Shown in pieces: positions 161 through 24,005 of a stretch of DNA of 64,000 nt (position 1 is the first letter of the stretch; every line of letters begins with the position of its first letter). The DNA is taken from the IMG/VR virus record IMGVR_UViG_3300028025_000089, one strand, 5' to 3'. The notes below the pieces were generated by a model that saw only the letters and a program-made list of their open reading frames with translations, did no database searches and was not told where the DNA came from. The position numbers and the translations under genes were made by a program. The DNA comes from a virus (taxonomy: Duplodnaviria; Caudoviricetes).

Positions 161-259
161 AGTCAGGTGGAATTTTGGTCCAGGTGTGGTTCGATCCCAC
201 ACTTTACTGAGAAGTAAGAGCAACTAAGGGCAACACAGGTTCGAATCCTGTCCTGACTA
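161..259 (+). ncRNA. tRNA-like RNA with two T-loop arms
   Basis: Acceptor AGTCAGG/CCTGACT (161-167/252-258); T arm ACAGG-TTCGAAT-CCTGT (235-251); D-like arm TGGA/TCCA (168-182); second arm GTGTGG-TTCGATC-CCACAC (184-202); GNRA hairpin TTACT-GAGA-AGTAA (204-217). Confidence 0.65.
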
Positions 260-263
260 CAAA

Positions 264-351
264 GTGTTGTTCCCTTGAGAAAGGAAAATAGAGTGGCTAC
301 AAGGTTGTTGCAACAACTAGTAAAGACTAACACAGAGGACTTCTCAACCTC
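264..351 (+). ncRNA. candidate kissing-loop structured RNA in the tRNA array
   Basis: P1 264-269/328-333; hairpin 270-273/283-286; hairpin 335-338/348-351; their loops are complementary over 7 nt (TTGAGAA 275-281 / TTCTCAA 341-347); perfect palindrome GTTGTTGCAACAAC at 304-317. Confidence 0.45.
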
Positions 352-357
352 ATATTT

Positions 358-432
358 GGTGTGGTAGCTCAGTAGGTAGAGCAAGGAGCCGGAAAACTCC
401 TGTGCCGATGGTTCGATTCCATTCCCATACCA
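358..432 (+). tRNA. tRNA-Phe-like gene with an 8-nt anticodon loop (CCGGAAAA)
   Basis: Acceptor GGTGTGG/CCATACC; D arm GCTC/GAGC; anticodon stem AGGAG/CTCCT around the 8-nt loop 389-396; T loop TTCGATT. Confidence 0.75.
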
Positions 433-438
433 CAAACA

Positions 439-518
439 TTGTGACGCAGGTGCAACGTCGGTCTCATGAGCCGAATTGGGTCGCCCCCCGTCGGAGGTTC
501 GAGTCCTTCAGTCACAAC
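439..518 (+). tRNA. aberrant tRNA(CAT) with truncated D arm and long variable arm
   Basis: Acceptor TTGTGAC/GTCACAA; only 12 nt precede the anticodon arm TCGGT-CTCATGA-GCCGA (458-474); 18-nt variable region containing GGG-tcgc-CCC; T arm 493-509. Confidence 0.6.
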
Positions 519-523
519 AACAT

Positions 524-596
524 CGCGGGATGTGGAAGTTGGTTATCCGCTCGGTCTCATAAGCCGAGATCGCAGGTTCGAGTCCTGCTCCCGCAA
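524..596 (+). tRNA. tRNA-fMet (CAT), initiator type
   Basis: Full cloverleaf; C1:A72 mismatch (524/595); anticodon CAT at 558-560; anticodon stem TCGGT/GCCGA. Confidence 0.9.
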
Positions 597-604
597 CTAA
601 AAAG

Positions 605-677
605 GCTGATATAGCTCAATGGTCAGAGCAGGACGCTTATATCGTCAAGGCTATGGGTTCGAGTCCCGTTATCAGCA
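605..677 (+). tRNA. tRNA-Ile (TAT)
   Basis: Acceptor GCTGATA/TATCAGC; D arm GCTC/GAGC; loop CTTATAT with anticodon TAT at 638-640; T arm ATGGG-TTCGAGT-CCCGT. Confidence 0.85.
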
Positions 678-899
678 CTGGGAGTGTTAGCAGTAGAGTT
701 CAGCTTAAGAATGGAAGTGGAGAGCACTTAAAAATGAGTCCACAAGGCATTAAGCCGTTTATTCAGTTTGAGGGCGATAAAAACTGACGTTTTTAGGAGA
801 AAATTTTACGATAATAAAATGAACCCATGGTGTTAGTAGGATTGATCCCCTCTTCCATGTAAAAAAATGTGACGGATGATCCCAAGTTCGTCACGACTT

Positions 900-972
900 G
901 CGGAAGTAGCTCAATTGGTAGAGCTCCAGCCTTCCAAGCTGGTTGTTGAGAGTTCGAGTCTCTTCTTCCGCT
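900..972 (+). tRNA. tRNA-Gly (TCC)
   Basis: Acceptor GCGGAAG/CTTCCGC; anticodon arm CCAGC-CTTCCAA-GCTGG; U73. Confidence 0.95.
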
Positions 973-979
973 CTAATTT

Positions 980-1051
980 GGTCCCATCGTCTATCGGTTA
1001 GGACGCCAGGTTTTCATCCTGGAAAGCGGGGTTCGATTCCCCGTGGGACTA
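980..1051 (+). tRNA. tRNA-Glu (TTC)
   Basis: Acceptor GGTCCCA/TGGGACT; anticodon arm CCAGG-TTTTCAT-CCTGG. Confidence 0.95.
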
Positions 1052-1066
1052 CAAAAATTGTAAGTT

Positions 1067-1336
1067 ATGAAAAAGTTTGAAGATTTAGAATTTGATAAAA
1101 TATCAGATGAACCATATATGTCAGGTGTTCGTTCTCGAATGGTCTTTGAAAATGGGTATGGTGTTAGTGTTATCTCTCATACATATTCATATGGTGGAAA
1201 AGATGGTTTGTTTGAAATTGCAGTTTTAGATAAAAAAGGTGAAATAACTTACAAGACACCTGTAACAAATGATGTGATTGGTTATTTAAATCCTGAAGAA
1301 GTTACAGAAATTATGGATCATGTGCAGAAATTGTAA
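1067..1336 (+). CDS. conserved small phage protein
   Basis: 89-aa ORF with an FENGYGVSV...SYGG..GLFE.AVL pattern that I recall from phage hypothetical proteins. Confidence 0.7.
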   Translation: MKKFEDLEFDKISDEPYMSGVRSRMVFENGYGVSVISHTYSYGGKDGLFEIAVLDKKGEITYKTPVTNDVIGYLNPEEVTEIMDHVQKL

Positions 1337-1347
1337 AAAATTATTCT

Positions 1348-1355
1348 TATATTTG
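1348..1355 (+). promoter_or_regulatory. Bacteroidota-type -7 promoter element (TAtaTTTG)
   Basis: Matches TAnnTTTG immediately upstream of the ORF at 1360. Confidence 0.55.
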
Positions 1356-1359
1356 TATT

Positions 1360-1638: not shown

Positions 1639-1643
1639 AAATA

Positions 1644-1715
1644 GGTCCATTGGTGTAGTGGCTAACATTCATCCCTGTCACGGATGAGCCGCGAGTTCGA
1701 TTCTCGCATGGACCG
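1644..1715 (+). tRNA. tRNA-Asp (GTC)
   Basis: Acceptor GGTCCAT/ATGGACC; anticodon arm CATCC-CTGTCAC-GGATG; G73. Confidence 0.95.
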
Positions 1716-1746
1716 CTAAAATTGTTTAACTAAAAAAAAAGAAAAA

Positions 1747-1968: not shown

Positions 1969-1970
1969 AT

Positions 1971-2174: not shown

Positions 2175-2258
2175 TTTTTGCTCTTATTTGACCATCAAAT
2201 AATAATTTATAACATTTTTTTTAATAATATTTCGTCATATAACAAACACCAATAAATC

Positions 2259-2360: not shown

Positions 2361-2424
2361 TTTTTTTCATAAAAGTTGGTAAATCCTATTTTCAATTTTT
2401 TAACTATTTATATATTAAAACAAT

Positions 2425-4283: not shown

Positions 4284-4457
4284 ATGAAATTATCTAAAGA
4301 ACAATTAATGGGTATTGTTAGACATACCTTAACCTTTGTAGGTGGTATTTTAATTACAAAGGGATTAATTGACGAAACAATTCTTACCGAGATCATCGGA
4401 GGTGCTACGGCATTATCAGGGGCGATTTGGTCAATAATTGTAAAAAATAAAGCATAA
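4284..4457 (+). CDS. putative holin, Pam3-gp28-like (not in ORF track)
   Basis: 57 aa, MKLSKEQLMGIVRHTLTFVGGILITKGLIDE...GAIWSIIVKNKA; two hydrophobic helices; TATTTATA at 4250-4257. Confidence 0.7.
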   Translation: MKLSKEQLMGIVRHTLTFVGGILITKGLIDETILTEIIGGATALSGAIWSIIVKNKA

Positions 4458-4465
4458 TTTTTTTT

Positions 4466-4489
4466 AGCCCATCTTTGGTGGGCTTTTTT
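4466..4489 (+). terminator. intrinsic terminator
   Basis: AGCCCA-loop-TGGGCT followed by a T tract. Confidence 0.7.
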
Positions 4490-4511
4490 CATTTTAGAAT
4501 ATTTATTGGAT

Positions 4512-5126
4512 ATGGATAATTTCTCAACAGTTTTGGTGGCCTTTATAAGTGGTGTTTTAGGTCCCATCAGTATCATGATAATTAAATATTATTTAGATCA
4601 AAGAAAGAAAAATAAACCTGATATGGTGATGGATACATTGAGGGTTAGTGAATTGATAAATTCAAAAATCGAACACATTAAAGAAGAATTTGATGCCGAT
4701 AGAGTTTGGGTTTCTCAATTTCATAATGGAGGTAATTTCTACCCTACAGGAAAATCAATGGCAAAGTTTTCGATCATGTATGAAACCGTAGGTCAATACG
4801 GAACATCGGTCCAATCTAATTTTAAAAACATTCCTGTTAATTTATTTTCTAAATCTATTAATGAACTTTTAAATAACGAATCAATTGAAATATCGGATTT
4901 CACAGATGAAAAAATACCAACTTTTGGGTTGAAATATATTGCCGAAGAAACAGGATGTAAGTCTTCATACTTATTCGCAATTAAAACAATTGAAGAAAAA
5001 TTCATTGGTGTTTTATCTGTAGATTACGTTAAAGAACCAAGAGAGTTAGATATCGAGGAAATCACACATTTACAAGTTCATGCATCCTCTATTGGTGGTG
5101 TTTTAATGAGTTATTTGAATAAGTAA
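4512..5126 (+). CDS. N-terminal TM plus GAF-like domain protein (possible lysis regulator)
   Basis: TM helix near aa 5-27, then a DRVWV..FHNG...KS..LFAI...FIGVL.VDY GAF-like pattern. The ATG at 4512 is preferred over the TTG at 4506. Confidence 0.55.
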   Translation: MDNFSTVLVAFISGVLGPISIMIIKYYLDQRKKNKPDMVMDTLRVSELINSKIEHIKEEFDADRVWVSQFHNGGNFYPTGKSMAKFSIMYETVGQYGTSVQSNFKNIPVNLFSKSINELLNNESIEISDFTDEKIPTFGLKYIAEETGCKSSYLFAIKTIEEKFIGVLSVDYVKEPRELDIEEITHLQVHASSIGGVLMSYLNK

Positions 5127-5149
5127 ATAATATTTCATATCTTTACGGT

Positions 5150-5632
5150 ATGAATATTTTCTTTTTAGATTTTGATACGAACAAATGTGCTGAGTATCAT
5201 TGTGATAAGCACGTAGTAAAAATGATCCTTGAAACGGCACAACTTCTGTGTGGAGTTCACCATATGGCCCCCCAAGTTACCCCCCAAGTTACCCCCCAAG
5301 TTCCCTATAAGTTATCACATAAAAATCATCCTTGTGCCATATGGGTTCGTGAGTCATTATCTAATTATCTTTATTTATGTGATCTTGGTTTGGAGTTGTG
5401 TAAAGAATATACGTATCGTTATGGAAAACGTCATAAATCTCAAGATGTTATTGAGTGGTGTATCACAAATTTACCGAATATCTGTGACAAAGACTTCACC
5501 ACACCTCCTAAGGCGATGCCTGACGAATATAAAGTCAATGATGTTATAGAATCTTATAGAAATTATTATCGTGGAGCAAAGAAAGATTTTGCTAAATGGA
5601 AAAATAGAGAGATCCCCGAATGGTTTTTATAA
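5150..5632 (+). CDS. pyrimidine-dimer DNA glycosylase (DenV/endonuclease V-like family)
   Basis: MNIFFLD...CAEYHCDKHVVKMILETAQLL...HKNHPCAIWVRES...YTYRYGKRH motifs. Confidence 0.8.
   Translation: MNIFFLDFDTNKCAEYHCDKHVVKMILETAQLLCGVHHMAPQVTPQVTPQVPYKLSHKNHPCAIWVRESLSNYLYLCDLGLELCKEYTYRYGKRHKSQDVIEWCITNLPNICDKDFTTPPKAMPDEYKVNDVIESYRNYYRGAKKDFAKWKNREIPEWFL
5268..5303 (+). repeat. in-frame 12-bp tandem repeat x3 (PQVT)
   Basis: CCCCAAGTTACC unit repeated inside the glycosylase gene. Confidence 0.9.
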
Positions 5633-5651
5633 AACAGAAGTATTTATTAAT

Positions 5652-6410
5652 ATGAAAGTTTCAAAATCTGCTTGTAGTTCATCAAACCCTTGTTCTGGAT
5701 ATGGTAGTGATGTTAGTGGTTGTTTAGGTAGTTCAAATTTAAAATCAATAGGTATTGGTAATAATGTGTTGGCTAAAGAAGCTGCCGATGCATTCATTAA
5801 AATGACTGATGACATGCCAAGTAATTTAAAAAGTAAGATCTCAATGGGAGGTGCATACAGACCTCTTAATATCCAATGTAATATTTTTGATTGGGGTAAA
5901 TATGAATCAACAGGAAAAAGAGTTAAAAAAGGAACTTCATCGACACCTGCGGCATATCCAGGAACATCTAATCATGGATGGGGTAGAGCAATCGACATAT
6001 CACCGTCAGATGTTCAAAATTGGATTAGAGAAAATGGAACAAAATACGGTTGGTGTTGGGGTGAAGCAAAATCAGAACCTTGGCATTTTACATTTTGTGG
6101 ACCAGGATCAAATAGAGATAAAAATTGTGATAGTTTTTGTAAAGGAAAAATGACCGTAGATACTTCTTCCGACAAAAAAGAAACATCTACAGAGAAAGAA
6201 GAAAAATCTACAGATAAAAAAGATACGTCTACTGATGGTAAAGATAAAAAAAAGAAATTCGATCCATTTTTTTCTTCTTTGGATGCAATTGTTGCTCTTG
6301 GTAAAGGAGATGTAAAAGGGTTGGAAGATTATGTTAGTAGTAGTGCTGATATGATTGGTTTATCCGAAGACGTAGATAGAATAAAAGATATTATGAAAAA
6401 AATACTTTAA
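5652..6410 (+). CDS. M15B (VanY-like) D,D-carboxypeptidase / cell-wall peptidase
   Basis: AYR...Q, AAYPGTSNHGWGRAIDI, YGW, EPWHF motifs. The true start is probably the ATG at 5652, after TATTTATT at 5641-5648. Confidence 0.85.
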   Translation: MKVSKSACSSSNPCSGYGSDVSGCLGSSNLKSIGIGNNVLAKEAADAFIKMTDDMPSNLKSKISMGGAYRPLNIQCNIFDWGKYESTGKRVKKGTSSTPAAYPGTSNHGWGRAIDISPSDVQNWIRENGTKYGWCWGEAKSEPWHFTFCGPGSNRDKNCDSFCKGKMTVDTSSDKKETSTEKEEKSTDKKDTSTDGKDKKKKFDPFFSSLDAIVALGKGDVKGLEDYVSSSADMIGLSEDVDRIKDIMKKIL

Positions 6411-6644: not shown

Positions 6645-6663
6645 AATTAAGTTTTTATATTTG
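6633..6663 (+). promoter_or_regulatory. Bacteroidota sigma-A type promoter P1 of the large ncRNA
   Basis: TTG (6633-6635), N20, TAtaTTTG (6656-6663). Confidence 0.7.
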
Positions 6664-6779: not shown

Positions 6780-7670
6780 ATAGATTATCCAATCAGGAAA
6801 AGTTTTGTCAGATTAATTGACGTGTAATTGAAACGAATGTTTCATCTTGGAATGATAAAGATATTGGGCAGTATATGGTCCATTAAAATAAACCATGAAA
6901 GTGGGATAAAGTGAATTATTTGTGTTAGATAGTTTGCGGCTTCTTCGGGAGCTCGAGTATACAAGCGGGATACCGTTTAACCTTTAGTATCGAGGGCAAC
7001 GCTGTAGAGAAAGTGGTTAGATGATTTGGCGATGTGGGTCGTCAAATTGAGGTGGGAACACCAATAGGAATAACTCGTAGGAATTTTGCAAAACAAAGTG
7101 TTCCAACACTTTCATTGCGAGTTCCAATATTAGAGGATACTTAAAACCGAAAGGTATGATAACAAACGGGTGGTGCCGACATTATCCTTGATGAACTCCT
7201 ACCAAGGGGTTAATCTCGAAGTAGTCTTAAAGTATGGAAATGGGGACATTTCAGAGAGTAGTTGAGTATTTCGTTGTTCAAAAGATAACGAAGCCCGTGA
7301 CGGACCACTACTTTCACAATCCACGACACAAAACTTATGGAAGTTGTTATTTTCCAAAAAATAATTATTACATTAAGGAAAAGTGTCCGTCAGGTTTGAA
7401 TGAAAGGTGACTACATAGTAATGAGCAGTTCATTGCACACAAAGATCCCAAGTCGATGTGTAATTTTTCGAAAAACCTTTAATCCCGCAAGGACGAACTG
7501 GGGAGGCATCCTCGGAAAGAGTTAAAGTAGAATGAGAGTAGTTCAGACCTCAAGGAGTGGTATACCTAAAAGACCGTCACTGAGAAATACTTCTCAAAAG
7601 GAAGTGGATAGGAGTAGAAACAATAATGACTCTAAAGGTTCTCACAAATAGGTGTAATCTCAACCTTTTA
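6780..7670 (+). ncRNA. giant structured ncRNA, probably GOLLD family (boundaries approximate)
   Basis: About 890 nt with no ORF in the track, GC-richer than the flanks. C(UUCG)G hairpin 6939-6952; GNRA hairpins 7147-7156 and 7237-7252; long-range helices 7219-7225/7307-7313 and TGACGGAC (~7298-7305)/GTCCGTCA (~7385-7392); terminal helix AAAGGTT (~7635)/AACCTTT (7662-7668); tandem promoters upstream and a terminator downstream. Confidence 0.7.
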
Positions 7671-7707: not shown

Positions 7708-8268
7708 TTAGGGACGATGTGAATCGATCCCTTTTTTTGTTTTTACTGATTGGTAAATAAGATCAATAAAGTTTAACATTTCATCATGTGTCATTGAATT
7801 TTTTGCATGGTTACATGCGGTGCTTATAAATTGTATGTTTCCTTTCACATACCCTAAATTACTATTGATCCTATCTAAAGAGGCGGTATTGATGTTATTA
7901 CCATTTTCATTTGGTTGAACTAATTTAACACCACTATAAACACAAATGCCACTTTGTATTTCCCATTGATCTAAAAGATCTTGTAAATCAATGTTATACT
8001 CATGATGTCTTTTTTTTAGTCTTCTGAAATGCTCTCTAAGTCCTGTAAATTGATCTCTACGGTTGTTTCTTTGTGGTTCTAAGTATTTAATATTTTCATT
8101 AACATATTGTTTTAAGTGGTTGTGATTATCAATACCACAACATTTTCTTGAGCAATAGTTTTTTCTACCAATTTTTTCGTTTCTAACTATTTCAGACTTA
8201 TCTTTCAAAAACTCAATACCACAAGATGGGTTAGAACATATTGTTAATTCTTTTTTTCTTTGTCTCAT
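7708..8268 (-). CDS. free-standing His-Me finger (HNH / endonuclease VII-like) homing endonuclease
   Basis: N-terminal Cys motif C..PSC...YCSRKC; C-terminal C.YSG...SLDRINSNLGYVKGNIQFIS.ACN.AKN. Confidence 0.8.
   Translation of the reverse strand: MRQRKKELTICSNPSCGIEFLKDKSEIVRNEKIGRKNYCSRKCCGIDNHNHLKQYVNENIKYLEPQRNNRRDQFTGLREHFRRLKKRHHEYNIDLQDLLDQWEIQSGICVYSGVKLVQPNENGNNINTASLDRINSNLGYVKGNIQFISTACNHAKNSMTHDEMLNFIDLIYQSVKTKKGIDSHRP
7710..7738 (+). terminator. intrinsic terminator downstream of the large ncRNA
   Basis: AGGGACGAT-gtga-ATCGATCCCT followed by a T run. Confidence 0.6.
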
Positions 8269-8368: not shown

Positions 8369-8786
8369 TGGTGGACCTAGAGGGCTCCGACTCCCTCGTC
8401 CGGCTCGTCTTGTCTAAAAGACAACTACATGTTTAGATCAAGGTTTTTCATACCTTCCGAAATATTTGGTTCCTATTTTTACATTGTTACCAAAAACTGT
8501 GTCGAGTTCACTTTGTTACGGTAGCCCTCTGAACGAGACCGTTGTTTCCTTTTAGAGTGAAAACCAACTCATCTACGACTTCTGTTGCTAGGTTATCTGT
8601 CTGACCGACCCCCCGTTTCCGTATCTAATTAAGCTACAGTAACTTCAGAACCTCTTACTAATCCAAGAGTTTCCATTTTGTTTAGCACATTGCCAGTTGT
8701 GTTTTGAATCAGTTTTTAACGAGATTAATTCAGTCCCGACATGCTTCTTTTATTCAACCAACGCCCGTCAAATCCAATATAGGCCC
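8369..8786 (-). ncRNA. ssrA: tmRNA (SsrA)
   Basis: 5' GGGCCTA-TATTGGATTTGAC; 3' T arm GAGGG-AGTCGGAG-CCCTC, then TAGGTCC-A-CCA. Acceptor stem has the G3:U70 alanine determinant. Internal tag frame at 8694-8629. Confidence 0.93.
8629..8694 (-). other. tmRNA tag reading frame (A)GNVLNKMETLGLVRGSEVTVA*
   Basis: Resume codon inferred as GGC after AACT; open for 21 codons to TAA. Confidence 0.75.
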
Positions 8787-8869: not shown

Positions 8870-10006
8870 ATGAAAAAAAGACTTCTTATAGAAAATGATG
8901 TTTCAGAAATGACGGATTTTCAAAAAATCCTTCTTTTAAATAAAAGAAAGTTGTCTTCTGATGATGTTGAATTTGAAAGTGATAATTACGAAGACTTGAA
9001 ACTAAATCATGTTCAGATTAAACCTGATGGTCTATTATTTGATTTTGATGATTTAGAACAGTTTTTAAAGTTTTTTCATTATCCTACATTTGAAGAAGGA
9101 ACTGACGGTGAGTGGGATGCGACTAATTATGATCGTATGTATTATGGTCAATATGATTTTTATAGTGAGTGTCAAGATCGAGCATACGACGATTGGAGTG
9201 AAGGATATACTTTAGGATATCTTTGTAGTGAAGCAAAAATCAGATTAAGAGAATTACTTAAAATAATTGCACCTAACCTTGTTGATAATATTAAAGAAGA
9301 CGGTAGTAGAATTGATGATGAAAGTCAAATAACTTCAGTATTGGACAAATACTTTCAACATATTGGAGATGAAATGGATGATATTATATGTTCTGCTAAA
9401 TCGAATGGAACTGAAGCGGGAGTTAAAGAAGCGATTGAAAAAGAATATTGTAATACACTTAGTGAATATGGTGTTGAAAAATGGGGTAAGTGGTGTTTTG
9501 GATTATACTTTATAAGTTGGGGTAATCTGGTTCAGTTATTTGTTGAAGATGGTGAATTTGATGTAAACGCTCTTGATGTATTAATTCAAAAAATCGATAA
9601 AAAATTTAGACACGGTCTTCCTGAATATTACGAAATGGAATACTATGTTATGGACAATGAAGTATTTGAATCTGAGTCTTGTGAAAAATTGGTTAATTTA
9701 ATTGATGAGTATATAGAAAGAGCCCAAGAAGAATTTTCTTCTGAATATATTAAAATTATTAATAAACTCTCATCTTTGGATTTATTATATAGAAGAGAAA
9801 TTCCAGGTCAAAAAAATTTATTTATAAAAGTGGATTCAGTTGATCCTGAAACATTAAAGGTAAAGTATCTTATTGGGTCAGGAGGTTATTTTGGTGATCG
9901 TAAATATGGTTTGGCAACTGCTGATGAGGTAATTGCAATGGCAACTCAGCCAGGTTTATTCAACCCAACTGAGTTTAGAATCGATCCAGGTCAATTAAGA
10001 CGATAA
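8870..10006 (+). CDS. acidic hypothetical protein (late-motif gene)
   Basis: 378-aa ORF; TATTTATA at 8857-8864. Confidence 0.75.
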   Translation: MKKRLLIENDVSEMTDFQKILLLNKRKLSSDDVEFESDNYEDLKLNHVQIKPDGLLFDFDDLEQFLKFFHYPTFEEGTDGEWDATNYDRMYYGQYDFYSECQDRAYDDWSEGYTLGYLCSEAKIRLRELLKIIAPNLVDNIKEDGSRIDDESQITSVLDKYFQHIGDEMDDIICSAKSNGTEAGVKEAIEKEYCNTLSEYGVEKWGKWCFGLYFISWGNLVQLFVEDGEFDVNALDVLIQKIDKKFRHGLPEYYEMEYYVMDNEVFESESCEKLVNLIDEYIERAQEEFSSEYIKIINKLSSLDLLYRREIPGQKNLFIKVDSVDPETLKVKYLIGSGGYFGDRKYGLATADEVIAMATQPGLFNPTEFRIDPGQLRR

Positions 10007-11022
10007 CGCTCTTTTAGAATCTTGTATAATTTTAAACCATCTTCATCATCAATATAAAAGTGGTTTTCATCGTATATGTCGGCGATTATGAACCCATCTT
10101 TTTCTTCAATCACATCAATAGATGTTAGTTGGTGAACCTCATCGTAAAATGGGCTTTCATCAACATCATCAAAATTATATAAAGATTTAACAGGTTTTGG
10201 TTCATCGTATTTGAATTCGTATTTTTTCAAACCAAGATCTTTAACCATGTTTTTTCCAGCTTCGATTGCTCTTTTAACATCATCTATACATACAAATTCA
10301 TTTGCTGTGTGCATATTATAATAACCACATGACATATTGATACAAGATAGGTCAGATAGTTGTTTAATCATCATAATATCGGTATATGGGTGAGACTGAA
10401 CCAACATCTCGTTATTAAACCCTTTTGTGATTGATCGAATTGCGGTATTGAAGAACTCTCCTTCTTTATCAAATAAAGTGGTTCCCATGCAAGCCTGTGA
10501 AATTAAATGATCACCAGGTGCGTCATATTGGACGCAATAACCAACATCTTTTAAAAACTCTTTATCTACCAATTTTGATCCGTGGCAACCTGTTTCTTCT
10601 GAAACGAAAAACGCAACTTTAACTTTATCTAATTGAGAAAGAAGTTCCAAACAAATATAAATTCCACATTTGTCATCACCACCAATTCCTGTTGGGTTAT
10701 CGTCTTTATCATATGCCTTTAAACATAATACTTGATCTCTTCCAAAATCTTTTCCAAATGTAAATGGACGAATAAGATATTCTTCTTTAACAATTATTTC
10801 ATCAACCAGTTCGTGAACCGTGTCGGTGTGAGAAATAAACATTGGGTAAAATTCACCTTCATCCAACGTTCCTTTAGTTGCATATATGTTAAGGTTTCCG
10901 TCACAGATTAAAGTAACTCCTTCCATATCACCAATGGTAGAAATTAAATACTCCACCATTTTAATTTCCTCATAAGTCTTGGTTGGGACAGATAAGAGTT
11001 CTTTAAATTTATTTAGATTCAT
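9991..11022 (-). CDS. M28/M20-family zinc peptidase
   Basis: SHTDTVH, GGDDKCG, SEETG and QYD...H metal-binding motifs. Confidence 0.8.
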   Translation of the reverse strand: MNLNKFKELLSVPTKTYEEIKMVEYLISTIGDMEGVTLICDGNLNIYATKGTLDEGEFYPMFISHTDTVHELVDEIIVKEEYLIRPFTFGKDFGRDQVLCLKAYDKDDNPTGIGGDDKCGIYICLELLSQLDKVKVAFFVSEETGCHGSKLVDKEFLKDVGYCVQYDAPGDHLISQACMGTTLFDKEGEFFNTAIRSITKGFNNEMLVQSHPYTDIMMIKQLSDLSCINMSCGYYNMHTANEFVCIDDVKRAIEAGKNMVKDLGLKKYEFKYDEPKPVKSLYNFDDVDESPFYDEVHQLTSIDVIEEKDGFIIADIYDENHFYIDDEDGLKLYKILKERYRLN

Positions 11023-12141: not shown

Positions 12142-14181
12142 TTATTCTTTCTTTTTTCTTGTTCTTTTAACTTTTTCTTCTTTATTAGAAATTATAACAT
12201 CATCATTTTCGACTTTCAAAATATATTCTTTGTTTTCTTCAATTTCCATCATTAAGATTTTTTCGGAAATTAAATCTTCAATTTTATTTTGAATTGCTCT
12301 TTTGATAGGTCTTGCACCAAAAGTTTCGTCAAAACCAACTTTAGATAGATAATCAACCAAATCTTGTTCATAAGAAAAATAGTATTTTTTCTCTGAAACT
12401 CTTTTTAATAATTTGTCAATCTCTAACTTGGTAATAACGTCAATGTGTGGTTTTTCTAAAGAGTTAAAAATTACAACATCATCAATTCTATTTAAAAACT
12501 CAGGTGAGAAAAACTTTTTCATTTCTTTCTTCAATACATCTTGTTTTTCTTCTTCTTTAACAACATCACTTTTTTGAGGTTGGAATCCCATACCAGTTCC
12601 AAAGTCTTGTAATTTTTTAACTCCAATGTTGGAAGTCATAATAATCAAACAATTTTTGAAGTTAATTTTACGACCTAATGAATCTGTAATGTGGCCATCA
12701 TCTAACAACTGAAGAAGTGTTGAGAAAATGTCTTTGTGAGCTTTCTCGATCTCATCAAACAATACAACAGAATAAGGTTTGTTTTTAACTTGTTCAGTTA
12801 ATTGACCACCTTCATCATGACCAACATATCCTGGAGGTGATCCAATCAAACGAGAAATGGTATGTTTCTCTTGATATTCACTCATATCTACACGAATCAT
12901 ATTGTCTTCACTACCAAAGATTTCTTTCGCCAATTGTTTTGCCAAATACGTTTTACCAACACCCGTAGATCCCAAGAAAATAAATGAACCGATTGGTTTA
13001 TTTGGATCTTTGATTCCAATTCTATTTCTTCTAATTGCTTTTGAAATTTTATTCACCGCTTCTTCTTGACCAATAACCTTTGAATTTAAACTTTCATTTA
13101 AATTAATTAATGAATTTCTTTCGTCCAAATTAATATTGGAAATTGGAATTTTGGTCATGTTGGAAACCACCTCATAAATTAAATCTTCAGGAATACTTCT
13201 TTTACTATTCAATAAACTTTCTTCGAATTTCTTTTTTTCTAAATCCAACTTTGATAAAACATTACGTTCTCTATCTCTTAACTCGGCAGCCAACTCATAT
13301 TTTTGTTGTTTAATAACATTCATTTTTTCTTGTTTGATGGCGTTTGCTTCGTCCTTTAATTTTTCGATTTCTTCAGGTAATTTGATGTCAATTTGCATTC
13401 TTGATCCAACCTCATCCAAAATATCAAATGCTTTATCAGGAAACTCACGATCTGTAATATATCGATCAGCCAACTCAACAAATGTCCAAAGAGTTTTATC
13501 ATCATAAGTCACTTTGTGGTGATCTTCATATTTTGATTTACTCATCTTTAAAATTTCAAATGTTTCTTCTTTTGAAGATGGATCAACAATAACCTTTTGA
13601 AATCTTCGATCTAACGCACCGTCTTTTTCAAAGTGTTTTCTATATTCATCCAAAGTTGTTGCTCCAACACATTGAATATCTCCTCTTGATAAAGCTGGTT
13701 TTAAAATGTTTGACGCATCTAAAGAACCTGAACTATTTCCTGCACCAACCATAGTGTGAATTTCATCAATAAATAAAATGATGTTTGGGGTTGCTTGTAA
13801 CTCTTCGATAATAACTTTCATTCGTTCTTCGAATTGACCTCTATATTTTGTTCCTGCGACTAATGAATTTAAATCTAAAGATACAATTCTTTTATCCATT
13901 AAATTTTTTGGACATTCACCGTTGTGAATCATCATTGCAAGACCCTCCACAATTGCTGTCTTTCCTGCACCTGGTTCACCAATAATAATTGGGTTATTTT
14001 TCTTTCTTCGAGATAAAATCTGAGCGATTCTAAAAATTTCTTTTTGTCTTCCAATTACAGGATCTAATTTCCCGTCTTGTGCTAACTTATTTAAGTCTTT
14101 ACTAAAATTATCTAATACAGGAGTCCCGCTATCAGATTTCTTTTTTGATTTGTCATTTCCTTCGTCCATAAATTCTAACAT
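12142..14181 (-). CDS. clpC: ClpC-type AAA+ unfoldase lacking the N-terminal Clp domain
   Basis: LDPVIGR; Walker A GEPGAGKT and GSTGVGKT; Walker B FIDEIH and FDEIEK; UVR-like M domain (AIKQEKM..IKQQKYELAAELRD); MGF ClpP-docking loop. Confidence 0.92.
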   Translation of the reverse strand: MLEFMDEGNDKSKKKSDSGTPVLDNFSKDLNKLAQDGKLDPVIGRQKEIFRIAQILSRRKKNNPIIIGEPGAGKTAIVEGLAMMIHNGECPKNLMDKRIVSLDLNSLVAGTKYRGQFEERMKVIIEELQATPNIILFIDEIHTMVGAGNSSGSLDASNILKPALSRGDIQCVGATTLDEYRKHFEKDGALDRRFQKVIVDPSSKEETFEILKMSKSKYEDHHKVTYDDKTLWTFVELADRYITDREFPDKAFDILDEVGSRMQIDIKLPEEIEKLKDEANAIKQEKMNVIKQQKYELAAELRDRERNVLSKLDLEKKKFEESLLNSKRSIPEDLIYEVVSNMTKIPISNINLDERNSLINLNESLNSKVIGQEEAVNKISKAIRRNRIGIKDPNKPIGSFIFLGSTGVGKTYLAKQLAKEIFGSEDNMIRVDMSEYQEKHTISRLIGSPPGYVGHDEGGQLTEQVKNKPYSVVLFDEIEKAHKDIFSTLLQLLDDGHITDSLGRKINFKNCLIIMTSNIGVKKLQDFGTGMGFQPQKSDVVKEEEKQDVLKKEMKKFFSPEFLNRIDDVVIFNSLEKPHIDVITKLEIDKLLKRVSEKKYYFSYEQDLVDYLSKVGFDETFGARPIKRAIQNKIEDLISEKILMMEIEENKEYILKVENDDVIISNKEEKVKRTRKKKE

Positions 14182-14774: not shown

Positions 14775-15017
14775 ATGGCAATAACAAGTGAAATAATTAG
14801 CGGAACTACAATTTTAAACGAAGTTCAATCATCAAATATTGTGAGAACACAATACGATACATTAACCAAAAAAATGATCGCAGAGTTTAAGAATGGGGTA
14901 AAATATGAATATAGTGATGTCCCACATCAAATTTACACTCAATTTAGAATGGCGGAATCACAAGGGAATTTTTTCAACAAAAACATTTCTAAAGCCCACA
15001 CATATAAGAAACTATAA
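14775..15017 (+). CDS. KTSC-domain protein
   Basis: SSNI...YD...EFKNGVKYEYSDVP..Y..F..AES.G.FFNKNI pattern. Confidence 0.85.
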   Translation: MAITSEIISGTTILNEVQSSNIVRTQYDTLTKKMIAEFKNGVKYEYSDVPHQIYTQFRMAESQGNFFNKNISKAHTYKKL

Positions 15018-15036: not shown

Positions 15037-15801
15037 ATGGATACTTCAGATATTTTAAAAAGTTTCGAATCTCAAGATGAACTAAACCCAAAGATTTGGT
15101 ATCTACCAAATGAAAAATACATGGGTGATCCTGAAGGTCAAAAAATGAAAATGAGACCTGAAGTTAGAGAAAAACTTTTGGAAACAGCAAATATCTTCAT
15201 TGACTTTTTAGGTGTTGACGTAATAGTCACAGATATTATTATGATCGGTTCTTTAGTTAATTATAACTGGTCAAAATTTTCTGATATTGATTTACACATC
15301 GTGGTTAACTTTAATCAATTCCCTGAAAATAGTAGGGATTTATACCTTGAATTTTTTGATTTGAAAAAAGTAATCTTTAATCAAAGACACAATATTAAAA
15401 TGTTTGGGTATGATGTTGAATGTTTTGTCCAAAGAGAAGACGAGACAACTTTTAGTAGTGGTATTTATTCTATTCTTTATGATATGTGGATGAATGAACC
15501 TAAAAAAACAAGTAAAGAAACTCTTGATAAAGAACTAATAAAAGAAAGGGCTAAACAATGGATGAGAATTATTGATGGTGTTGTTGATAACATCGAAGAT
15601 GAGGATCCTGAAGAAATTAAAAGTATTGTAAAAAAATACAAAGAAAAATTAAAAAACTTCAGAAACTGTGGTTTAGAGAAAGGTGGTGAAATGTCGATAG
15701 AAAATTTGGTATTCAAATTACTAAGAAGAAACGGATATGTTGAAAAATTGTATGAATTACCGACCGAAATTATCGATAAAAAACTATCCATGAAACAATA
15801 A
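15037..15801 (+). CDS. Pol-beta-superfamily nucleotidyltransferase
   Basis: GSLVNYNWSKFSDIDLHI (GS...DxD) plus a downstream YDVE acidic residue. Confidence 0.75.
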   Translation: MDTSDILKSFESQDELNPKIWYLPNEKYMGDPEGQKMKMRPEVREKLLETANIFIDFLGVDVIVTDIIMIGSLVNYNWSKFSDIDLHIVVNFNQFPENSRDLYLEFFDLKKVIFNQRHNIKMFGYDVECFVQREDETTFSSGIYSILYDMWMNEPKKTSKETLDKELIKERAKQWMRIIDGVVDNIEDEDPEEIKSIVKKYKEKLKNFRNCGLEKGGEMSIENLVFKLLRRNGYVEKLYELPTEIIDKKLSMKQ

Positions 15802-18602: not shown

Positions 18603-18606
18603 ATAA

Positions 18607-20385
18607 ATGGGTTTATCTAAAGAACAAGTTTTAATTGAATATGCTAAGTGTATGAGTGATACTCCATACGCACTTAGAACGTATTTACAAACATACGATA
18701 ATACGGTGTCTAAATACGTGCCGTTAGAATTGTTTCCTGATCAAATTTCTCTTTTAAAAGATTATGAAGATTACGAAGAAAATATCGCATTAAAATATAG
18801 ACAGGCTGGAGTTTCTACCGTAACAGCGGCTTGGATTTCAAAAAGATTAGTTTTTGCTAAAAAAACTCAACCTGAAAAAATTCTAATAATTGCCAACAAA
18901 CTTGATACATCAATGGAGATGGCAAATAAGATTAGAGCCTTTGTTGATCAATGGCCTGGTTGGGTTGGTGCTGGATTTGCAGCAGAAAAAAACTCACAGA
19001 GACACTACAAATTAAATAATGGATCTGAGGTTAAGGCGGTTGCAACATCAAAAGATGCACTTCGTGGATTTACCCCCACGATTCTTGTATTTGATGAGGC
19101 GGCGTTTATCGAGGCCGATAGTGATTTCTGGGCTGCTTGTATGGCGTCCTTATCCACAGGGGGTAAGGTAATTGTAGTTTCTACACCAAACGGATACGAT
19201 CCAATTTATTATGAAATATACGATCAGTCATTAAAAGGGATGAATAACTTTAAAATCTCTGAAATGTATTGGTATAGAGATCCAAGATACGCAAAAGATC
19301 TTTATTTAGTCCCAACTGACGATTTAATTCATTATTTACTTAATATTGATGATTTTGACACTTCAAAAAATATATCTTTCGCACATGTAGATCCATATAG
19401 TAGAGATTATCAAGAGTTACAACATTTCTTTAATCAGGGATACAAACCATGCTCATCTTGGTATGAAAAAATGGTTAAAAAACTTAAATATGATAAAAGA
19501 AAAATTAACCAAGAGTTAAATTGTGAATTTTTAGGTTCAGGTGACAACGTATTTGATAATAAACAATTAGAAGATATTAAAAATAATTCATTACAAGATC
19601 CTCCATCTAAATTAATGGGTAACTCTCTTTGGATATGGAAAGAACCTATTGAGGGTCATAAATACATTATGGGTGTCGATGTATCAAGAGGAGATAGTGA
19701 AGACTTTTCATCGATTCAGATTATCGATTTTGATGAAAGAGAACAAGTGTTAGAATATGTTGGAAAAATACCACCCGATACTTTGGCGGAAGTTGCTTAT
19801 AAGTGGGGAATGATGTATAATGCATTTGTTGTTGTCGATATCACCGGTGGTATGGGAATTACTACGGTTAGAAAAATGCAAGAACTTGGTTATAAAAGTT
19901 TATATGTTGATGGTGTTGACGCATTTAATCCGTGGTCAACAAACAAAGGATCGGTTGAAAAAATACCAGGATTAAACTTTAATAATAAAAGAGTTCAAAT
20001 TATTGCGGCATTTGAGGAGGCCGTTAGACATAAATTTAAATTAAAAAGTGTTCGTTTATATAACGAAATGAATACTTTTGTATATATTAATGGAAGACCT
20101 GATCATCAAAAAGGACAACATGACGATTTGATTATGGGAATTTCTATGGCAATCTATATTGCCGAAGCATCTTTTTCAAAGTTGGAAAAAGCAACCGAAC
20201 AAGCGAAATCTATGATTGACTCTTGGGCTGTAGTTAATAACGAATCTGTGGGAAAAGAAGCACACTTTAATCCTACAATCCCTAATGATAATATGTTAAG
20301 GGAAAGGGCAGGATTACAAAATAACGGTCCAACCAGAAATGATTATCAAACATATGGTTGGTTATTTGGAGGATTAATCAAATAA
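18607..20385 (+). CDS. terminase large subunit (T4 gp17-like)
   Basis: KYRQAGVST Walker A; ILVFDEAAF Walker B; STPNG; nuclease motifs MGVDVSRG and HDDL. Confidence 0.95.
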   Translation: MGLSKEQVLIEYAKCMSDTPYALRTYLQTYDNTVSKYVPLELFPDQISLLKDYEDYEENIALKYRQAGVSTVTAAWISKRLVFAKKTQPEKILIIANKLDTSMEMANKIRAFVDQWPGWVGAGFAAEKNSQRHYKLNNGSEVKAVATSKDALRGFTPTILVFDEAAFIEADSDFWAACMASLSTGGKVIVVSTPNGYDPIYYEIYDQSLKGMNNFKISEMYWYRDPRYAKDLYLVPTDDLIHYLLNIDDFDTSKNISFAHVDPYSRDYQELQHFFNQGYKPCSSWYEKMVKKLKYDKRKINQELNCEFLGSGDNVFDNKQLEDIKNNSLQDPPSKLMGNSLWIWKEPIEGHKYIMGVDVSRGDSEDFSSIQIIDFDEREQVLEYVGKIPPDTLAEVAYKWGMMYNAFVVVDITGGMGITTVRKMQELGYKSLYVDGVDAFNPWSTNKGSVEKIPGLNFNNKRVQIIAAFEEAVRHKFKLKSVRLYNEMNTFVYINGRPDHQKGQHDDLIMGISMAIYIAEASFSKLEKATEQAKSMIDSWAVVNNESVGKEAHFNPTIPNDNMLRERAGLQNNGPTRNDYQTYGWLFGGLIK

Positions 20386-20387
20386 CG

Positions 20388-20759
20388 ATGGGTTTAGATT
20401 TTAGAAAAAGGTCAGGAAGAATTGCAAATGGTTCGAGATTAATTGTCGAAGGTCAACAAACTATTGGTCAAAAAGTTTTTCCAAATACCTTTTCTATGAA
20501 AAGTAGACCTGCAGAGCCTACTATTGATTCAATTCCCGCATCACCAACCCCAACTCCAAGTGTAACCCCAACAATAACACCATCAGTAACACCAACAGTA
20601 ACACCAACAATAACACCAACAATAACACCAACCAATACTGGAACCCCAACTCCTACACCTACACCAAGTTCTACATCTACACCGGAGTTATTAGATGCAA
20701 TTATTGTAGGTGTCAATACCTACATATCTGTTAATACAAATGAATACTTAATGTATTAG
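20388..20759 (+). CDS. small protein with a Pro/Thr-rich (TP)n tract
   Basis: Likely start is the ATG at 20388; TPTPSVTPTITP repeats. Confidence 0.7.
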   Translation: MGLDFRKRSGRIANGSRLIVEGQQTIGQKVFPNTFSMKSRPAEPTIDSIPASPTPTPSVTPTITPSVTPTVTPTITPTITPTNTGTPTPTPTPSSTSTPELLDAIIVGVNTYISVNTNEYLMY

Positions 20760-20811
20760 TTGTGCCATAATTAACTATTGAAATATTTATTTCTATAGTT
20801 AAATTATTAAT

Positions 20812-22623
20812 ATGGAAAATAATAATCAAAATCTGACGGTTTGGCAAAGGTTATCCAAGACATTTGGGCCCGATTCAACATTAGGTCAAGGACAACCAGA
20901 TTACAAGTTAGATAAAAAAGAACTTTTAAAAACTCAAGACAAGGCCGAATACGAAAGAGCCAAGTTACAAAATCAACAATCGTTATATCTTAGCACCAAT
21001 TGGGCTAAAGTTGAGAATAATCTATATACACAGGCGGTTTATTATGAACCAACAAGATTGGCCGCGTTTTATGATTATGAATCTATGGAATATACTCCTG
21101 AGATCTCAACGGCTTTGGACATCTACGCTGAGGAATCAACAACTCCTGATGCCAATGGTTATATATTACAGGTTTATTCAGAGTCAAAAAGAATTAAAAG
21201 TATATTAGTTGATTTATTTGTTAATGTATTAGATATTAATACCAACTTACCAATGTGGATTAGAAACATGTGTAAGTATGGTGATAATTTTGTTTATTTA
21301 AAATTAGACCACGAAAAAGGAGTTACTGGTTGTTTACAACTACCAAATATTGAAATTGAAAGACTTGAAAGGGGTGTTGATTCTAAAACTTATAGTGCGA
21401 CTATCAACATCAATAGAAAAGCTTTAAAGTTTGCATGGAAAGCAAGAGATGCAGAATTCAACACTTGGGAGGTTGCACACTTTAGATTATTGGGTGATGA
21501 TAGAAAACTTCCTTATGGAACCTCAATGTTAGAAAAAGCTCGTCGTATTTGGAAACAATTAGTTTTGGCTGAAGATGCGATGTTAATCTATAGAACATCA
21601 AGAGCCCCTGAAAGAAGGGTATTTAAAGTATTTGTTGGAAACATGGATGACAAAGATGTTGAAGCTTACGTTCAAAGGGTTGCCAACAAATTCAAAAGAG
21701 ATCAAGTTGTTGATAGAAAAACAGGAAATGTTGATTTAAGATTTAATCAAATGGCCGTGGATCAAGATTACTTTATTCCTGTTCGTGATGCCACACAGGG
21801 TAGTCCTATTGATACTTTACCTGGTGGAACAAATTTATCTGAAATTGCGGATATTGAATATATCCAAAAGAAACTTGTTACAGCACTTCGTATTCCTAAA
21901 GCATATTTAGGATTTGAAGAACCTGTAGGTGATGGTAAAAACTTGTCATTATTAGATATTCGTTTTGCAAGAACAATCAATAGAATTCAAAAATCAGCAT
22001 TGGCTGAGTTAAATAAAATTGCAATTATTCACTTATTTTTGATGGGGTTTGAAGACGAGTTGTCAAACTTTACTTTACAACTTACAAATCCTTCTAAACA
22101 AGCAGATCTTTTAATGATTGATGTTTGGAAAGAAAAAGTTACTCTGTATAAAGATATGGTTGGTGAAATTGCCAAATCAATTCAACCAACATCTGCAACA
22201 TGGGCTAAAAAACATATCTTTGGGTTCTCTGATGATGAAATCAAATTGGAACTTCAACAAATTAGAATGGAAAGAGCGGTTTCTGCTGAGTTAGATAATA
22301 CTGCAACAATCATTACAAGCACAGGAATATTTAACACCGTAGATAAGTTATATAAACCTGTTACAGGATCTACCGCAGGTGCAGGGGCACCTCCAGCAGA
22401 AGGAGGATCACCGGCAGAAGGAGGAGCACCACCTCCACCTCCAGGACCTGAAGCGGGTGGAGCACCACCAATTCCTGAATCTTCAGATAGAAAAGAAAAA
22501 AATAAATTAATATTAGAATCATTAAATGATGATTTTGACGAAGATGAATTTTTGGACTTTCAAAAAGTTAATGGATCTTTAGGGTTAATGGAAGATGAGT
22601 TAAATAAACTTCTTGGTGACTAA
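20812..22623 (+). CDS. portal protein (T4 gp20-like)
   Basis: YGTSMLEKARRIWKQL.L.EDAM.IYR..RAPERRVFKV.VGN and EDYF-like DQDYFIP motifs. Confidence 0.95.
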   Translation: MENNNQNLTVWQRLSKTFGPDSTLGQGQPDYKLDKKELLKTQDKAEYERAKLQNQQSLYLSTNWAKVENNLYTQAVYYEPTRLAAFYDYESMEYTPEISTALDIYAEESTTPDANGYILQVYSESKRIKSILVDLFVNVLDINTNLPMWIRNMCKYGDNFVYLKLDHEKGVTGCLQLPNIEIERLERGVDSKTYSATININRKALKFAWKARDAEFNTWEVAHFRLLGDDRKLPYGTSMLEKARRIWKQLVLAEDAMLIYRTSRAPERRVFKVFVGNMDDKDVEAYVQRVANKFKRDQVVDRKTGNVDLRFNQMAVDQDYFIPVRDATQGSPIDTLPGGTNLSEIADIEYIQKKLVTALRIPKAYLGFEEPVGDGKNLSLLDIRFARTINRIQKSALAELNKIAIIHLFLMGFEDELSNFTLQLTNPSKQADLLMIDVWKEKVTLYKDMVGEIAKSIQPTSATWAKKHIFGFSDDEIKLELQQIRMERAVSAELDNTATIITSTGIFNTVDKLYKPVTGSTAGAGAPPAEGGSPAEGGAPPPPPGPEAGGAPPIPESSDRKEKNKLILESLNDDFDEDEFLDFQKVNGSLGLMEDELNKLLGD

Positions 22624-22634
22624 TATTTATTAAC

Positions 22635-23081
22635 ATGAGTAAATTAGAAAAACTACCACAAAAAAATTTAAAGTTTATTCTAAAAAGAATGAATGAAAGT
22701 CTCGATAAGACAAGTTTGATTTCACATCATAACCAAAAAGTTATAAAAGAAATTTTTGATGATATTGGAATGGTGGTTAGAGGTCAAGATATTGATTTTA
22801 TTTTCGCTCTTTATAGAGAAAATCCAAATTTTTTAATAGAAGAACTTAAATTACCAACATTACACGAATACGAAATTATCACAAAAAGATATGCTACTAT
22901 TAGTATTAGAGAATATTGGAAAAATACTCATGAAACTTATTTAGATGACGAGGATGATGTTGATGATTTTATCTCTTGGTTTGGTGGTGGCGATTGGTGG
23001 GATGGTGAAATGATTGACCGAGAAGAATTTGATGAAGAAACTGCTGAAACGGAAATAGATGAAATAAACAAACTTAGTTGA
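22635..23081 (+). CDS. acidic hypothetical protein
   Basis: 148 aa; late motif at 22624. Confidence 0.7.
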   Translation: MSKLEKLPQKNLKFILKRMNESLDKTSLISHHNQKVIKEIFDDIGMVVRGQDIDFIFALYRENPNFLIEELKLPTLHEYEIITKRYATISIREYWKNTHETYLDDEDDVDDFISWFGGGDWWDGEMIDREEFDEETAETEIDEINKLS

Positions 23082-23103
23082 TATTTATTATAAAACAAAA
23101 AAA

Positions 23104-23820
23104 ATGAAAGTCGGAGAATTAAAATCAAAAATAGAAAATCAACTAGTTGAGTCATACAAAAAAAATTCATTTAAAGAAAATATTTTTATTTTTGAAGAAT
23201 TGGTTTTGAAAAATAAAAACATTGCAAAACTTTTTTTCTTATATGATGAGTTGTCAAATAAAAAAGGACTTTCAGAAAATGTTGCAAACGAATTCATAAA
23301 TGAGTCAATCGTGGCTTATGAAAATTTGATCAACAAAGTTAACCCACTACACTTAAGAGAATTAAATGCTTGGGCTGGTCATCAGAAATGTGAAAATAAT
23401 TATGAAAAAATTGATAATTTATTTTCCACAAGTGTTTTGACTCTTGAAAATAAAATTAAAAGTAAAAAAATGATTTTAGAGGAATTAACTCAAAAAGAAA
23501 ATAAAACTAATGAGGTAATAAAAGTTCCATTAAAATCTATGGTTTCTGTGGCAAACAAAACCATATCTAAATTTATTTCTTCTCTAACAGAATCTGAAAG
23601 AAAAGAATTAAAAGTAATTTTAAATACCCCAAAAGAAACTTTGGTTGAAAACTATAACTCTCAAAAAGAAAACGTTATTTCAAAATTGGAAGATCAAAAA
23701 AATAACGAAACCGATTCTGAAACAATTTCAACTATAAATCAAGTGTTAACAAGATTGCAAACAGAATCATTTTCAGAACTGAATTACTATAAGTTAAAAC
23801 AACTTAACGAAGGACTTTAA
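23104..23820 (+). CDS. conserved head-module hypothetical protein
   Basis: 238-aa helical protein between portal and protease; late motif at 23082. Confidence 0.7.
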   Translation: MKVGELKSKIENQLVESYKKNSFKENIFIFEELVLKNKNIAKLFFLYDELSNKKGLSENVANEFINESIVAYENLINKVNPLHLRELNAWAGHQKCENNYEKIDNLFSTSVLTLENKIKSKKMILEELTQKENKTNEVIKVPLKSMVSVANKTISKFISSLTESERKELKVILNTPKETLVENYNSQKENVISKLEDQKNNETDSETISTINQVLTRLQTESFSELNYYKLKQLNEGL

Positions 23821-24005
23821 TTCTTTTTGGATTTTACTTTTTGAATATAGGCGGCCTTTTTGTTTTCCTCCCTTTTTATTACTGAAGGTTTAACAAATTC
23901 TTTTCTCTGAAACAAAACACTATTTTGCTTTGTTTTAATAACTTTTCCTTTAAGGTCTTTTAAAGCCTTTTCAATATTACCTTTTTTTACTTCTACAATT
24001 AACAT
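23817..24005 (-). CDS. rpsU: ribosomal protein bS21
   Basis: MLIVEVKKGNIEKALK.LK.K...RKEFVKPSVIKREE.KKAAYIQK matches the Bacteroidota bS21 pattern. Confidence 0.85.
   Translation of the reverse strand: MLIVEVKKGNIEKALKDLKGKVIKTKQNSVLFQRKEFVKPSVIKREENKKAAYIQKVKSKKN

Follow-up and report, generated by a model that had tools for sequence, protein, structure and literature searches.

A junction region of about 24 kb (positions 161 to 24005) lies inside a 64,000-nt stretch of a Caudoviricetes virus, IMG/VR record IMGVR_UViG_3300028025_000089 (this whole stretch is called the window). It carries tRNAs, tRNA-like RNAs, a transfer-messenger RNA (tmRNA), the giant noncoding RNA GOLLD, a ClpC unfoldase, a KTSC-domain protein beside a nucleotidyltransferase (NTase), and the ribosomal protein bS21. 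Our analysis suggests, with a probability of roughly 0.7, that these parts are several separate translation and proteostasis aids rather than one coordinated pathway for countering host defenses. The region would join the end of a fast-changing stable-RNA array to a conserved core block ordered tmRNA, peptidase, ClpC, KTSC, NTase, terminase, portal, bS21, protease, and capsid. Its parts would fall into at least four separately regulated modules, namely, the tRNA array, the tmRNA with the proteostasis locus, the NTase, and bS21. A sequence-only reading had joined all of them, including three tRNA mimics and an adaptor for ClpC, into one kit against tRNA-cleaving or translation-arrest defenses, acting through decoys, replacement tRNAs, 3'-end repair, ribosome rescue, and tag disposal. 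The co-location of the parts holds at every coordinate, and replacement tRNAs, rescue, and bS21 exchange are plausible roles with precedent, but their joint action is unsupported; the parts appear grouped by theme rather than as one unit, and we regard the integrated kit as very unlikely. The features of the core block are the following.

8369-8786, minus strand: one-piece tmRNA with G3.U70, an encoded CCA, and an 8-nt T loop (78.5 bits against a cut-off of 47)
8694-8629, within the tmRNA: 21-codon tag open reading frame (ORF), ending VTVA
9991-11022, minus strand: M20/M42-type metallopeptidase, adjoining ClpC
12142-14181, minus strand: ClpC-type AAA+ unfoldase of Bacteroidota origin, without N-domain and with an MGF loop
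14351-14713, plus strand: double-UVR protein, in the slot divergent from ClpC
14775-15017, plus strand: stand-alone KTSC-domain protein (PF13619, E 9e-16)
15037-15801, plus strand: Pol-beta-superfamily NTase of 254 aa, with its own TATTTAT motif
18607-20385, plus strand: terminase large subunit (TerL), core block
20812-22623, plus strand: T4-type portal protein, core block
23817-24005, minus strand: bS21, inside the head-assembly block, with Tyr53 present
from 24577: prohead protease, head-assembly block
from 27239: capsid, head-assembly block

Profiling across related phages drew on about 240 loci anchored on TerL, ClpC, or the NTase, which gave the counts of core-block conservation and variation, and on three complete relatives, among them G039 and G040 (G and L numbers are labels of related phage records and loci). 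All TerL- and ClpC-anchored loci show core synteny with head genes, and the order tmRNA, peptidase, ClpC, KTSC, NTase, TerL, and portal is nearly fixed. The tmRNA stands beside ClpC in 73 of 74 loci and on its strand in all 114 in which both were seen; a peptidase homolog adjoins ClpC, in either orientation, in 74/74 relatives' loci with context; and KTSC precedes the NTase in 126 of 126 clade loci. Since this block includes packaging genes, co-location shows mostly common inheritance. The components do not travel jointly across related phages: bS21, the position of GOLLD, the UVR adaptor, the mimics, SmpB, ClpP, and a class II CCA/poly(A)-family enzyme vary independently, which contradicts the kit on the testable half of its claim. 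bS21 found no match in 4 of 82 loci, three of which have only 82 to 85 nt at its site. The complete 309-kb genome G040 has 133 nt there and no bS21, keeps tmRNA, ClpC, KTSC, NTase, and GOLLD, and adds smpB (the only one of the three complete relatives to have it), clpP, and a class II CCA/poly(A)-family gene. ClpP occurs in two of the three and is missing from the closest.

Upstream motifs divide the parts of the supposed kit into at least two classes, with a separate signal between KTSC and the NTase. TATTTAT lies within 35 nt of the start codon of the NTase in 98% of 131 loci, of the protease in 100%, and of the gene at 23104 in 99% (background, 1.5%); for KTSC and ClpC, the figures are 21% and 6% of the relatives' loci. 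The Bacteroidota promoter motif TAnnTTTG precedes the tmRNA in 88% and the peptidase in 86% (background, 12%). Judging from the genes that it marks, TATTTAT may be a late signal. In the window alone, a sigma-70 promoter scan and the TAnnTTTG count remained at chance level, and only the comparison across relatives was informative. Twenty-six of the 61 TATTTAT sites of the window fall 4 to 34 nt before start codons, often 4 to 6 nt, a spacing that would imply very short leaders if TATTTAT were a promoter element.

Several points weigh against separate modules. All parts of the proposed kit lie within 24 kb, and its proteins and tmRNA are syntenic across the clade. The near-perfect conservation of tmRNA, peptidase, ClpC, KTSC, and NTase leaves within-clade profiling little power, and invariant parts could cooperate; KTSC and NTase are never separated inside the clade. 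A link of GOLLD to trans-translation is hinted at by its position, beside the tmRNA in one subclade and beside smpB in G040. In the window itself, TATTTAT also precedes ClpC, KTSC, and bS21, and its assignment to a late class comes from the gene set rather than from mapped starts. Moreover, the complete relatives compared number only three, and the fold matches of the NTase are weak (TM-score below 0.3).

The kit had assigned 3'-end repair to the KTSC protein and the NTase, a role that the comparison does not bear out. By its sequence, the NTase is a member of the Pol-beta superfamily and represents a phage family without prior characterization. Its catalytic set (G71 S72, D83 D85, and E128) is invariant in 139 sequences, 130 of which match PF01909, and its model (pLDDT 91) comprises a minimal core and a three-helix bundle. 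The head domain of class II CCA/poly(A) enzymes, PF01743, found no match in the window NTase and is not among the families matched by at least two of the 139 members. G040, alone among the three complete relatives, carries a true class II gene of this family separately, and the two show no profile similarity (probability, 0.2%). With regard to class I CCA enzymes, the 254-aa NTase has only the three-helix bundle after its core, and a weak Foldseek match to 4x4u (E 0.046, TM 0.21) stands among many equal NTase matches. RlaP is likewise not among the families matched by at least two members. Partners for RNA repair are mostly missing as well: RtcB occurs in none of the three complete relatives, and an RNA ligase (PF09414) occurs in one, far from the NTase. 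No T4-type Pnk plus Rnl1 or RtcB repair genes were recognized in 1-29 kb, where the Pnk and Rnl1 families were not searched. Finally, 21 of 22 host tRNAs sampled lack an encoded CCA (a rough count), so the hosts would already add CCA themselves.

The pairing of the NTase with KTSC also dissolves beyond the clade. Maribacter, Synechococcus, Lak, and other phages have the NTase; five of them, searched whole, yielded KTSC in none, tmRNA in one, and bS21 in one. A phmmer search gave 270 NTase homologs, none of them fused to KTSC, and the co-folding score of the two proteins, 0.00, amounts to no verdict and is evidence neither way. As to what the NTase does, the fold matches spread over CD-NTases, aminoglycoside adenylyltransferases, and MNT antitoxins; VIA-align returned generic helical bundles (best Z 8.1) and minimal NTases (Z 6.5 to 6.6), and the NTase alone, searched by sequence, found nothing in the PDB. 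The best sequence hint, itself weak, is the AMPylase DrrA (E 0.013), and SidM_N is matched by 29 of 139 members. Distant homologs exceed 330 aa in 107 of 150 cases; M23, VanY, amidase, or peptidoglycan-binding domains were recognized in 3 of 10 long homologs scanned. On this evidence, the NTase is more likely a late, perhaps virion-borne nucleoside monophosphate transferase acting on a protein or small molecule than a CCA adder. In 22 of 188 clade loci, its ORF is extended to 430 to 880 aa (L162, L164, L246, and L260 among them). The family comprises 3,814 clusters at 50% identity, is present in cultured Maribacter and Synechococcus phages (gp026 of Maribacter phage Molly is one member), and can be studied in culture.

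The stable-RNA array behaves differently from the core block. The window cuts it and contains the following of its elements, all on the plus strand.

161-259, plus strand: tRNA "shell" with intact acceptor stem and T arm and a variable interior, from a multi-copy clade family
264-351, plus strand: RNA element with conserved ends and a variable core, without Rfam match
358-433, plus strand: tRNA-Phe-derived gene with an 8-nt anticodon loop lacking U33 (36 bits)
440-517, plus strand: degenerate fMet-like tRNA with a CAU arm, a shrunken D arm, and a long variable arm (25 bits, below the tRNA covariance cut-off of 29)
524-596, plus strand: initiator tRNA-fMet(CAU), with C1:A72 and with U31.G39 replacing the host G31-C39
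605-678, plus strand: tRNA-Ile(UAU); G001 has tRNA-Thr(UGU) at this site
900-973, plus strand: tRNA-Gly(UCC)
980-1052, plus strand: tRNA-Glu(UUC)
1644-1716, plus strand: tRNA-Asp(GUC)

Complete relatives hold about 24 to 28 tRNA matches in shuffled order and content, so that turnover of the array is evident from the comparison. The tRNA-like elements are patchy. The shell family of the element at 161 has 29 distinct versions, up to four per locus, with cores of very different lengths, and the version of the window recurs only in G010 and G022; the family of the element at 264 has eight distinct versions across the window and its relatives. G001, although 96% identical, is missing the elements at 161, 264, and 440, and its Phe loop is canonical. 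The 8-nt Phe loop is shared by the window, G010, G002, G027, and G061, whereas G001, G031, and L424 have a 7-nt GAA loop. The sole exact-motif match of the element at 440 in IMG/VR is an identical copy in L424. The element at 358-433 was also considered as a purpose-built mimic with no relation to tRNA-Phe and rejected as such, its sequence being Phe-derived.

Such patchiness is what would be expected if the array served plain tRNA supply and codon matching in a large burst, the tRNA-like elements being decaying or selfish by-products with no role against defenses. The near-complete tRNA sets of the complete relatives agree with this, as does tRNA-Ile(UAU), which reads the AUA codons that make up 27% of Ile codons in the window. 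Mere decay fits less well with the shells, which keep fixed acceptor and T arms across their 29 versions, or with the 8-nt-loop Phe gene, whose stem pairing is kept through compensating changes; the recurrence of the fMet change at positions 31 and 39 in several phages also speaks against it. Plain supply alone is therefore possible but doubtful in our judgment. The retained acceptor and T arms suggest that the tRNA-like elements probably undergo tRNA-type processing; they may be decoys, cargo carriers, or debris. In the shells, variation is greatest at the sites that anticodon nucleases would read, which argues against the decoys of the integrated kit; acceptor-end toxins would be likelier targets of a decoy role, or the ends may serve as signals for processing. 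In the fMet gene, U31.G39 differs from the G31-C39 of 18 of 19 host fMets sampled, a difference favorable to the kit that fits nuclease evasion as modeled elsewhere (PMC10264068).

Two further observations concern the same array. tRNA-Ile(UAU) (605-678) has U at position 38, which recurs in several relatives; a UAU-anticodon tRNA-Ile is rare in bacteria, and lysidine modification would not be needed. A one-base anticodon switch between Ile(UAU) and Thr(UGU) was dismissed, as the whole gene differs. Between tRNA-Ile and tRNA-Gly lies an ORF-free 220-nt element (679-899), kept in at least eight relatives (60 to 185 bits) without Rfam match, which is a candidate for an uncatalogued structured RNA.

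The tag of the tmRNA is the firmest positive finding of the analysis. Tags were read by script (ARAGORN missed the tmRNA of the window and miscalled some tags), and wrong-frame or truncated calls were set aside. In close and distant relatives alike, about 60 in total, nearly every tag read measures 21 to 22 residues, and its end is almost always VA. Among 40 distinct 21-codon DNA versions, G1, G11, and L12 are invariant, dN/dS is 0.36, and an alternative frame is hardly ever open. The Bacteroidota host tags called, 25 in number, all have 9 to 10 residues and end in LAA or MAA; the tag of Lak-A2, which falls outside the clade, resembles them and ends in MAA. The phage tag thus appears conserved under purifying selection at about twice the host length, although its 3' part overlaps a tmRNA helix and RNA structure may account for part of this conservation. 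In L270, the tag is one residue longer and ends in Tyr. The T loop (8369-8401, minus strand) has 8 nt and is without the usual UUCRA motif in this branch. A group I intron within the tmRNA was ruled out, the HNH gene lying outside it.

ClpC, next to the tmRNA, has 679 aa against 837 to 850 aa in 12 hosts. Its best bacterial matches (53 to 58% identity) are almost all Bacteroidota, and the N-domain of about 170 residues is absent from all phage copies examined. These features would suit a private quality-control route, in which the phage unfoldase, instead of the host's tag-reading proteases, would handle rescued proteins; its components would be the tmRNA with its 21-residue tag, ClpC without N-domain, an exchangeable adaptor, and the peptidase. 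The shared strand and adjacency of tmRNA and ClpC, a tag kept as a peptide unlike every host tag, and the host-like tag of Lak-A2 all point toward it. The same synteny, however, is common to unrelated head genes, the tmRNA helix also constrains the tag sequence, a VA end could simply be read by host C-terminal-degron proteases, and ClpP is absent from the closest complete relative. The slot divergent from ClpC argues in the same direction: in 76 loci, it holds UVR in 31, Hsp20 in 16 to 17, DnaK in 5, and nothing in about 21. Such swapping, general chaperones included, reads as a general proteostasis locus rather than the fixed tag-disposal pair of ClpC and "adaptor" once supposed. All in all, a private route seems rather unlikely. 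The five DnaK loci (L130, L132, L133, L139, and L156) encode a full-length phage DnaK (PF00012), divergent from clpC.

GOLLD bears on the same question. Two features occupy the interval before the tmRNA.

6790-7666, plus strand: GOLLD RNA, of which Rfam covers 7254-7666; the 5' end is approximate
7708-8268, minus strand: HNH/endonuclease VII-type gene, between GOLLD and tmRNA (PHROG 3322, E 4e-21)

GOLLD was identified by a full-model covariance match to RF02032 (313 bits against a cut-off of 150) and is preceded by host-type promoter motifs at 6656 and 6731. It is present in all three complete relatives and stands beside the tmRNA in 26 of 50 loci, but at a distance of 127 kb in G039 and 194 kb in G040; in the subclade of the window, the two RNAs are tail to tail. 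From these placements, we infer that GOLLD is a mobile RNA tied to tRNA arrays, while its neighbors, the tmRNA in one subclade and smpB in G040, hint at a connection to trans-translation. Contigs of four lake RNA runs cover GOLLD, including its 5' part, and the tmRNA; as contigs only, holding 5 to 9% of words, they neither rank genes by coverage nor prove transcription, and they showed no RNA ends. In L304 (18550-19472, equal to G040 23555-24471), smpB follows GOLLD immediately on one strand, and G058 has two GOLLD copies in one contig (19736-20149 and 36280-36673). Only a few relatives carry the HNH/endonuclease VII-type gene, which resembles a mobile homing nuclease. A bolder combination would have a private trans-translation and disposal channel, its tag poorly read by host proteases and specifically by phage ClpC, shells soaking up acceptor-end toxins, and GOLLD linked to trans-translation; we consider it unlikely.

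Under the preferred reading of separate aids, the modules would have in common the aim of keeping phage protein output up. The array would, by analogy with other phages, provide tRNAs after depletion or cleavage of the host pool. The tmRNA would rescue stalled ribosomes, usually with host SmpB, and add the 21-residue phage tag, next to a ClpC that would act as a general unfoldase or disaggregase and may dock on ClpP. The NTase would be a late-class enzyme, possibly carried in the virion, that most likely transfers a nucleoside monophosphate to a protein or small molecule, and bS21 would be a late substitute for the ribosomal subunit, as proposed by Chen et al. 2022 (PMC9723584).

The phage itself is large, T4-like, and about 31% GC, with related records of 304 to 321 kb. 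Its closest TerL relative among GenBank phages reaches only 27.5%, i.e., none is close. Bacteroidota affiliation is supported by the best bacterial matches of ClpC and by the TAnnTTTG motifs. Within the TerL-portal-protease-major capsid block, bS21 is encoded on the reverse strand with a hypothetical gene on either side, and it has Tyr53, the aromatic residue at the Tyr54 position of Chen et al. That study describes lake myophages of Bacteroidota (clades a to e) with a reverse-strand bS21 between two hypothetical genes, an aromatic residue at that position, and genomes of 293 to 331 kb, with TerL more than about 70% similar to published genomes as the clade criterion (PMC9723584). By bS21 layout, Tyr53, and affiliation, the window phage matches this bS21-encoding freshwater clade. 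About 20 further protein genes fill the 24 kb, terminase, portal, DenV, VanY, HNH nuclease, and peptidase among them. Upstream of GOLLD, 4284-6410 encodes a small membrane protein, a 204-aa membrane-anchored protein, a DenV glycosylase, and a VanY peptidase, a possible lysis or cell-wall cluster in which DenV and VanY alone are Pfam confirmed. Beyond the junction, 39632-52749 (minus strand) holds a run of sugar-nucleotide and glycosyltransferase-like genes, judged by their N termini only; clusters of this type are reported for the Chen clade (PMC9723584).

Much of the theme is already published. Huge phages carry tRNAs, tmRNA, SmpB, CCA enzymes, and S21 that redirect or rescue translation (Al-Shayeb et al. 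2020, PMC7162821), Iyer et al. 2021 (PMC7824862) list KTSC and Clp proteins in a context of translation interception, and tmRNA rescue and bS21 substitution both have precedent (PMC7162821, PMC9723584). With the phage fitting a described clade, the integrated claim adds little. The junction departs from those sets in that no synthetase, initiation factor, or RNA ligase was recognized among the genes of 1-29 kb and in that its NTase does not consistently match either family, CCA or RlaP, that those accounts name. With the Chen clade, it has in common the bS21 layout, aromatic residue, GC content, tRNAs, chaperones, and Clp genes; the tmRNA, its tag, GOLLD, KTSC, the NTase, and the tRNA shells are not discussed in the parts of that account that were consulted. 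Phage tRNAs evade host tRNA-cleaving defenses (van den Berg 2023, PMC10264068), as does T5 tRNA-Lys in the case of PARIS (PMC11464382), with a further such case in PMC11555353. Such neutralization favors a defense role, and the window fMet resembles these tRNAs in an anticodon arm changed from that of the host; the published cases are single functional tRNAs and not a multi-part kit.

What seems worth keeping is the conserved 21-residue tag beside an N-domain-less ClpC, the multi-copy tRNA shells, and the NTase family. The tmRNA resembles the Bacteroidota one-piece type (RF00023) in its Ala identity pair G3.U70, CCA end, and similar position of the resume codon and differs from it in the length and VxVA end of its tag, its 8-nt T loop, and the usual lack of a phage smpB. 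ClpC shares with Bacteroidota ClpC (Hsp100), at 55 to 58% identity, two AAA+ modules, a middle coiled coil, and a ClpP-docking-type loop, but has lost the N-domain and sits divergent from a partner slot that swaps UVR, Hsp20, and DnaK. A tag twice the host length beside such a truncated ClpC could show whether the phage reroutes products of ribosome rescue. The GOLLD of the window is like known GOLLD RNAs in its full-length model match, long 5' extension, and proximity to a tRNA array. The published account, which places GOLLD near tRNA islands and gives it a nanocage structure, mentions neither tmRNA nor SmpB (bioRxiv 10.1101/2024.12.08.627333); the tail-to-tail arrangement with tmRNA and the G040 copy directly upstream of smpB are unlike it and form a concrete lead on GOLLD function.

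For the shells, literature searches on the TATTTATA motif and the T4 species 1/2 RNAs produced nothing usable. The T4 species 1 and species 2 stable RNAs have tRNA-like ends around a non-tRNA core and lie inside the phage tRNA cluster. The shells of the window are like them, by description only, in combining such ends with such a core, and unlike them in belonging to a multi-copy family, whose acceptor/T-arm sequence is fixed while its cores are many.

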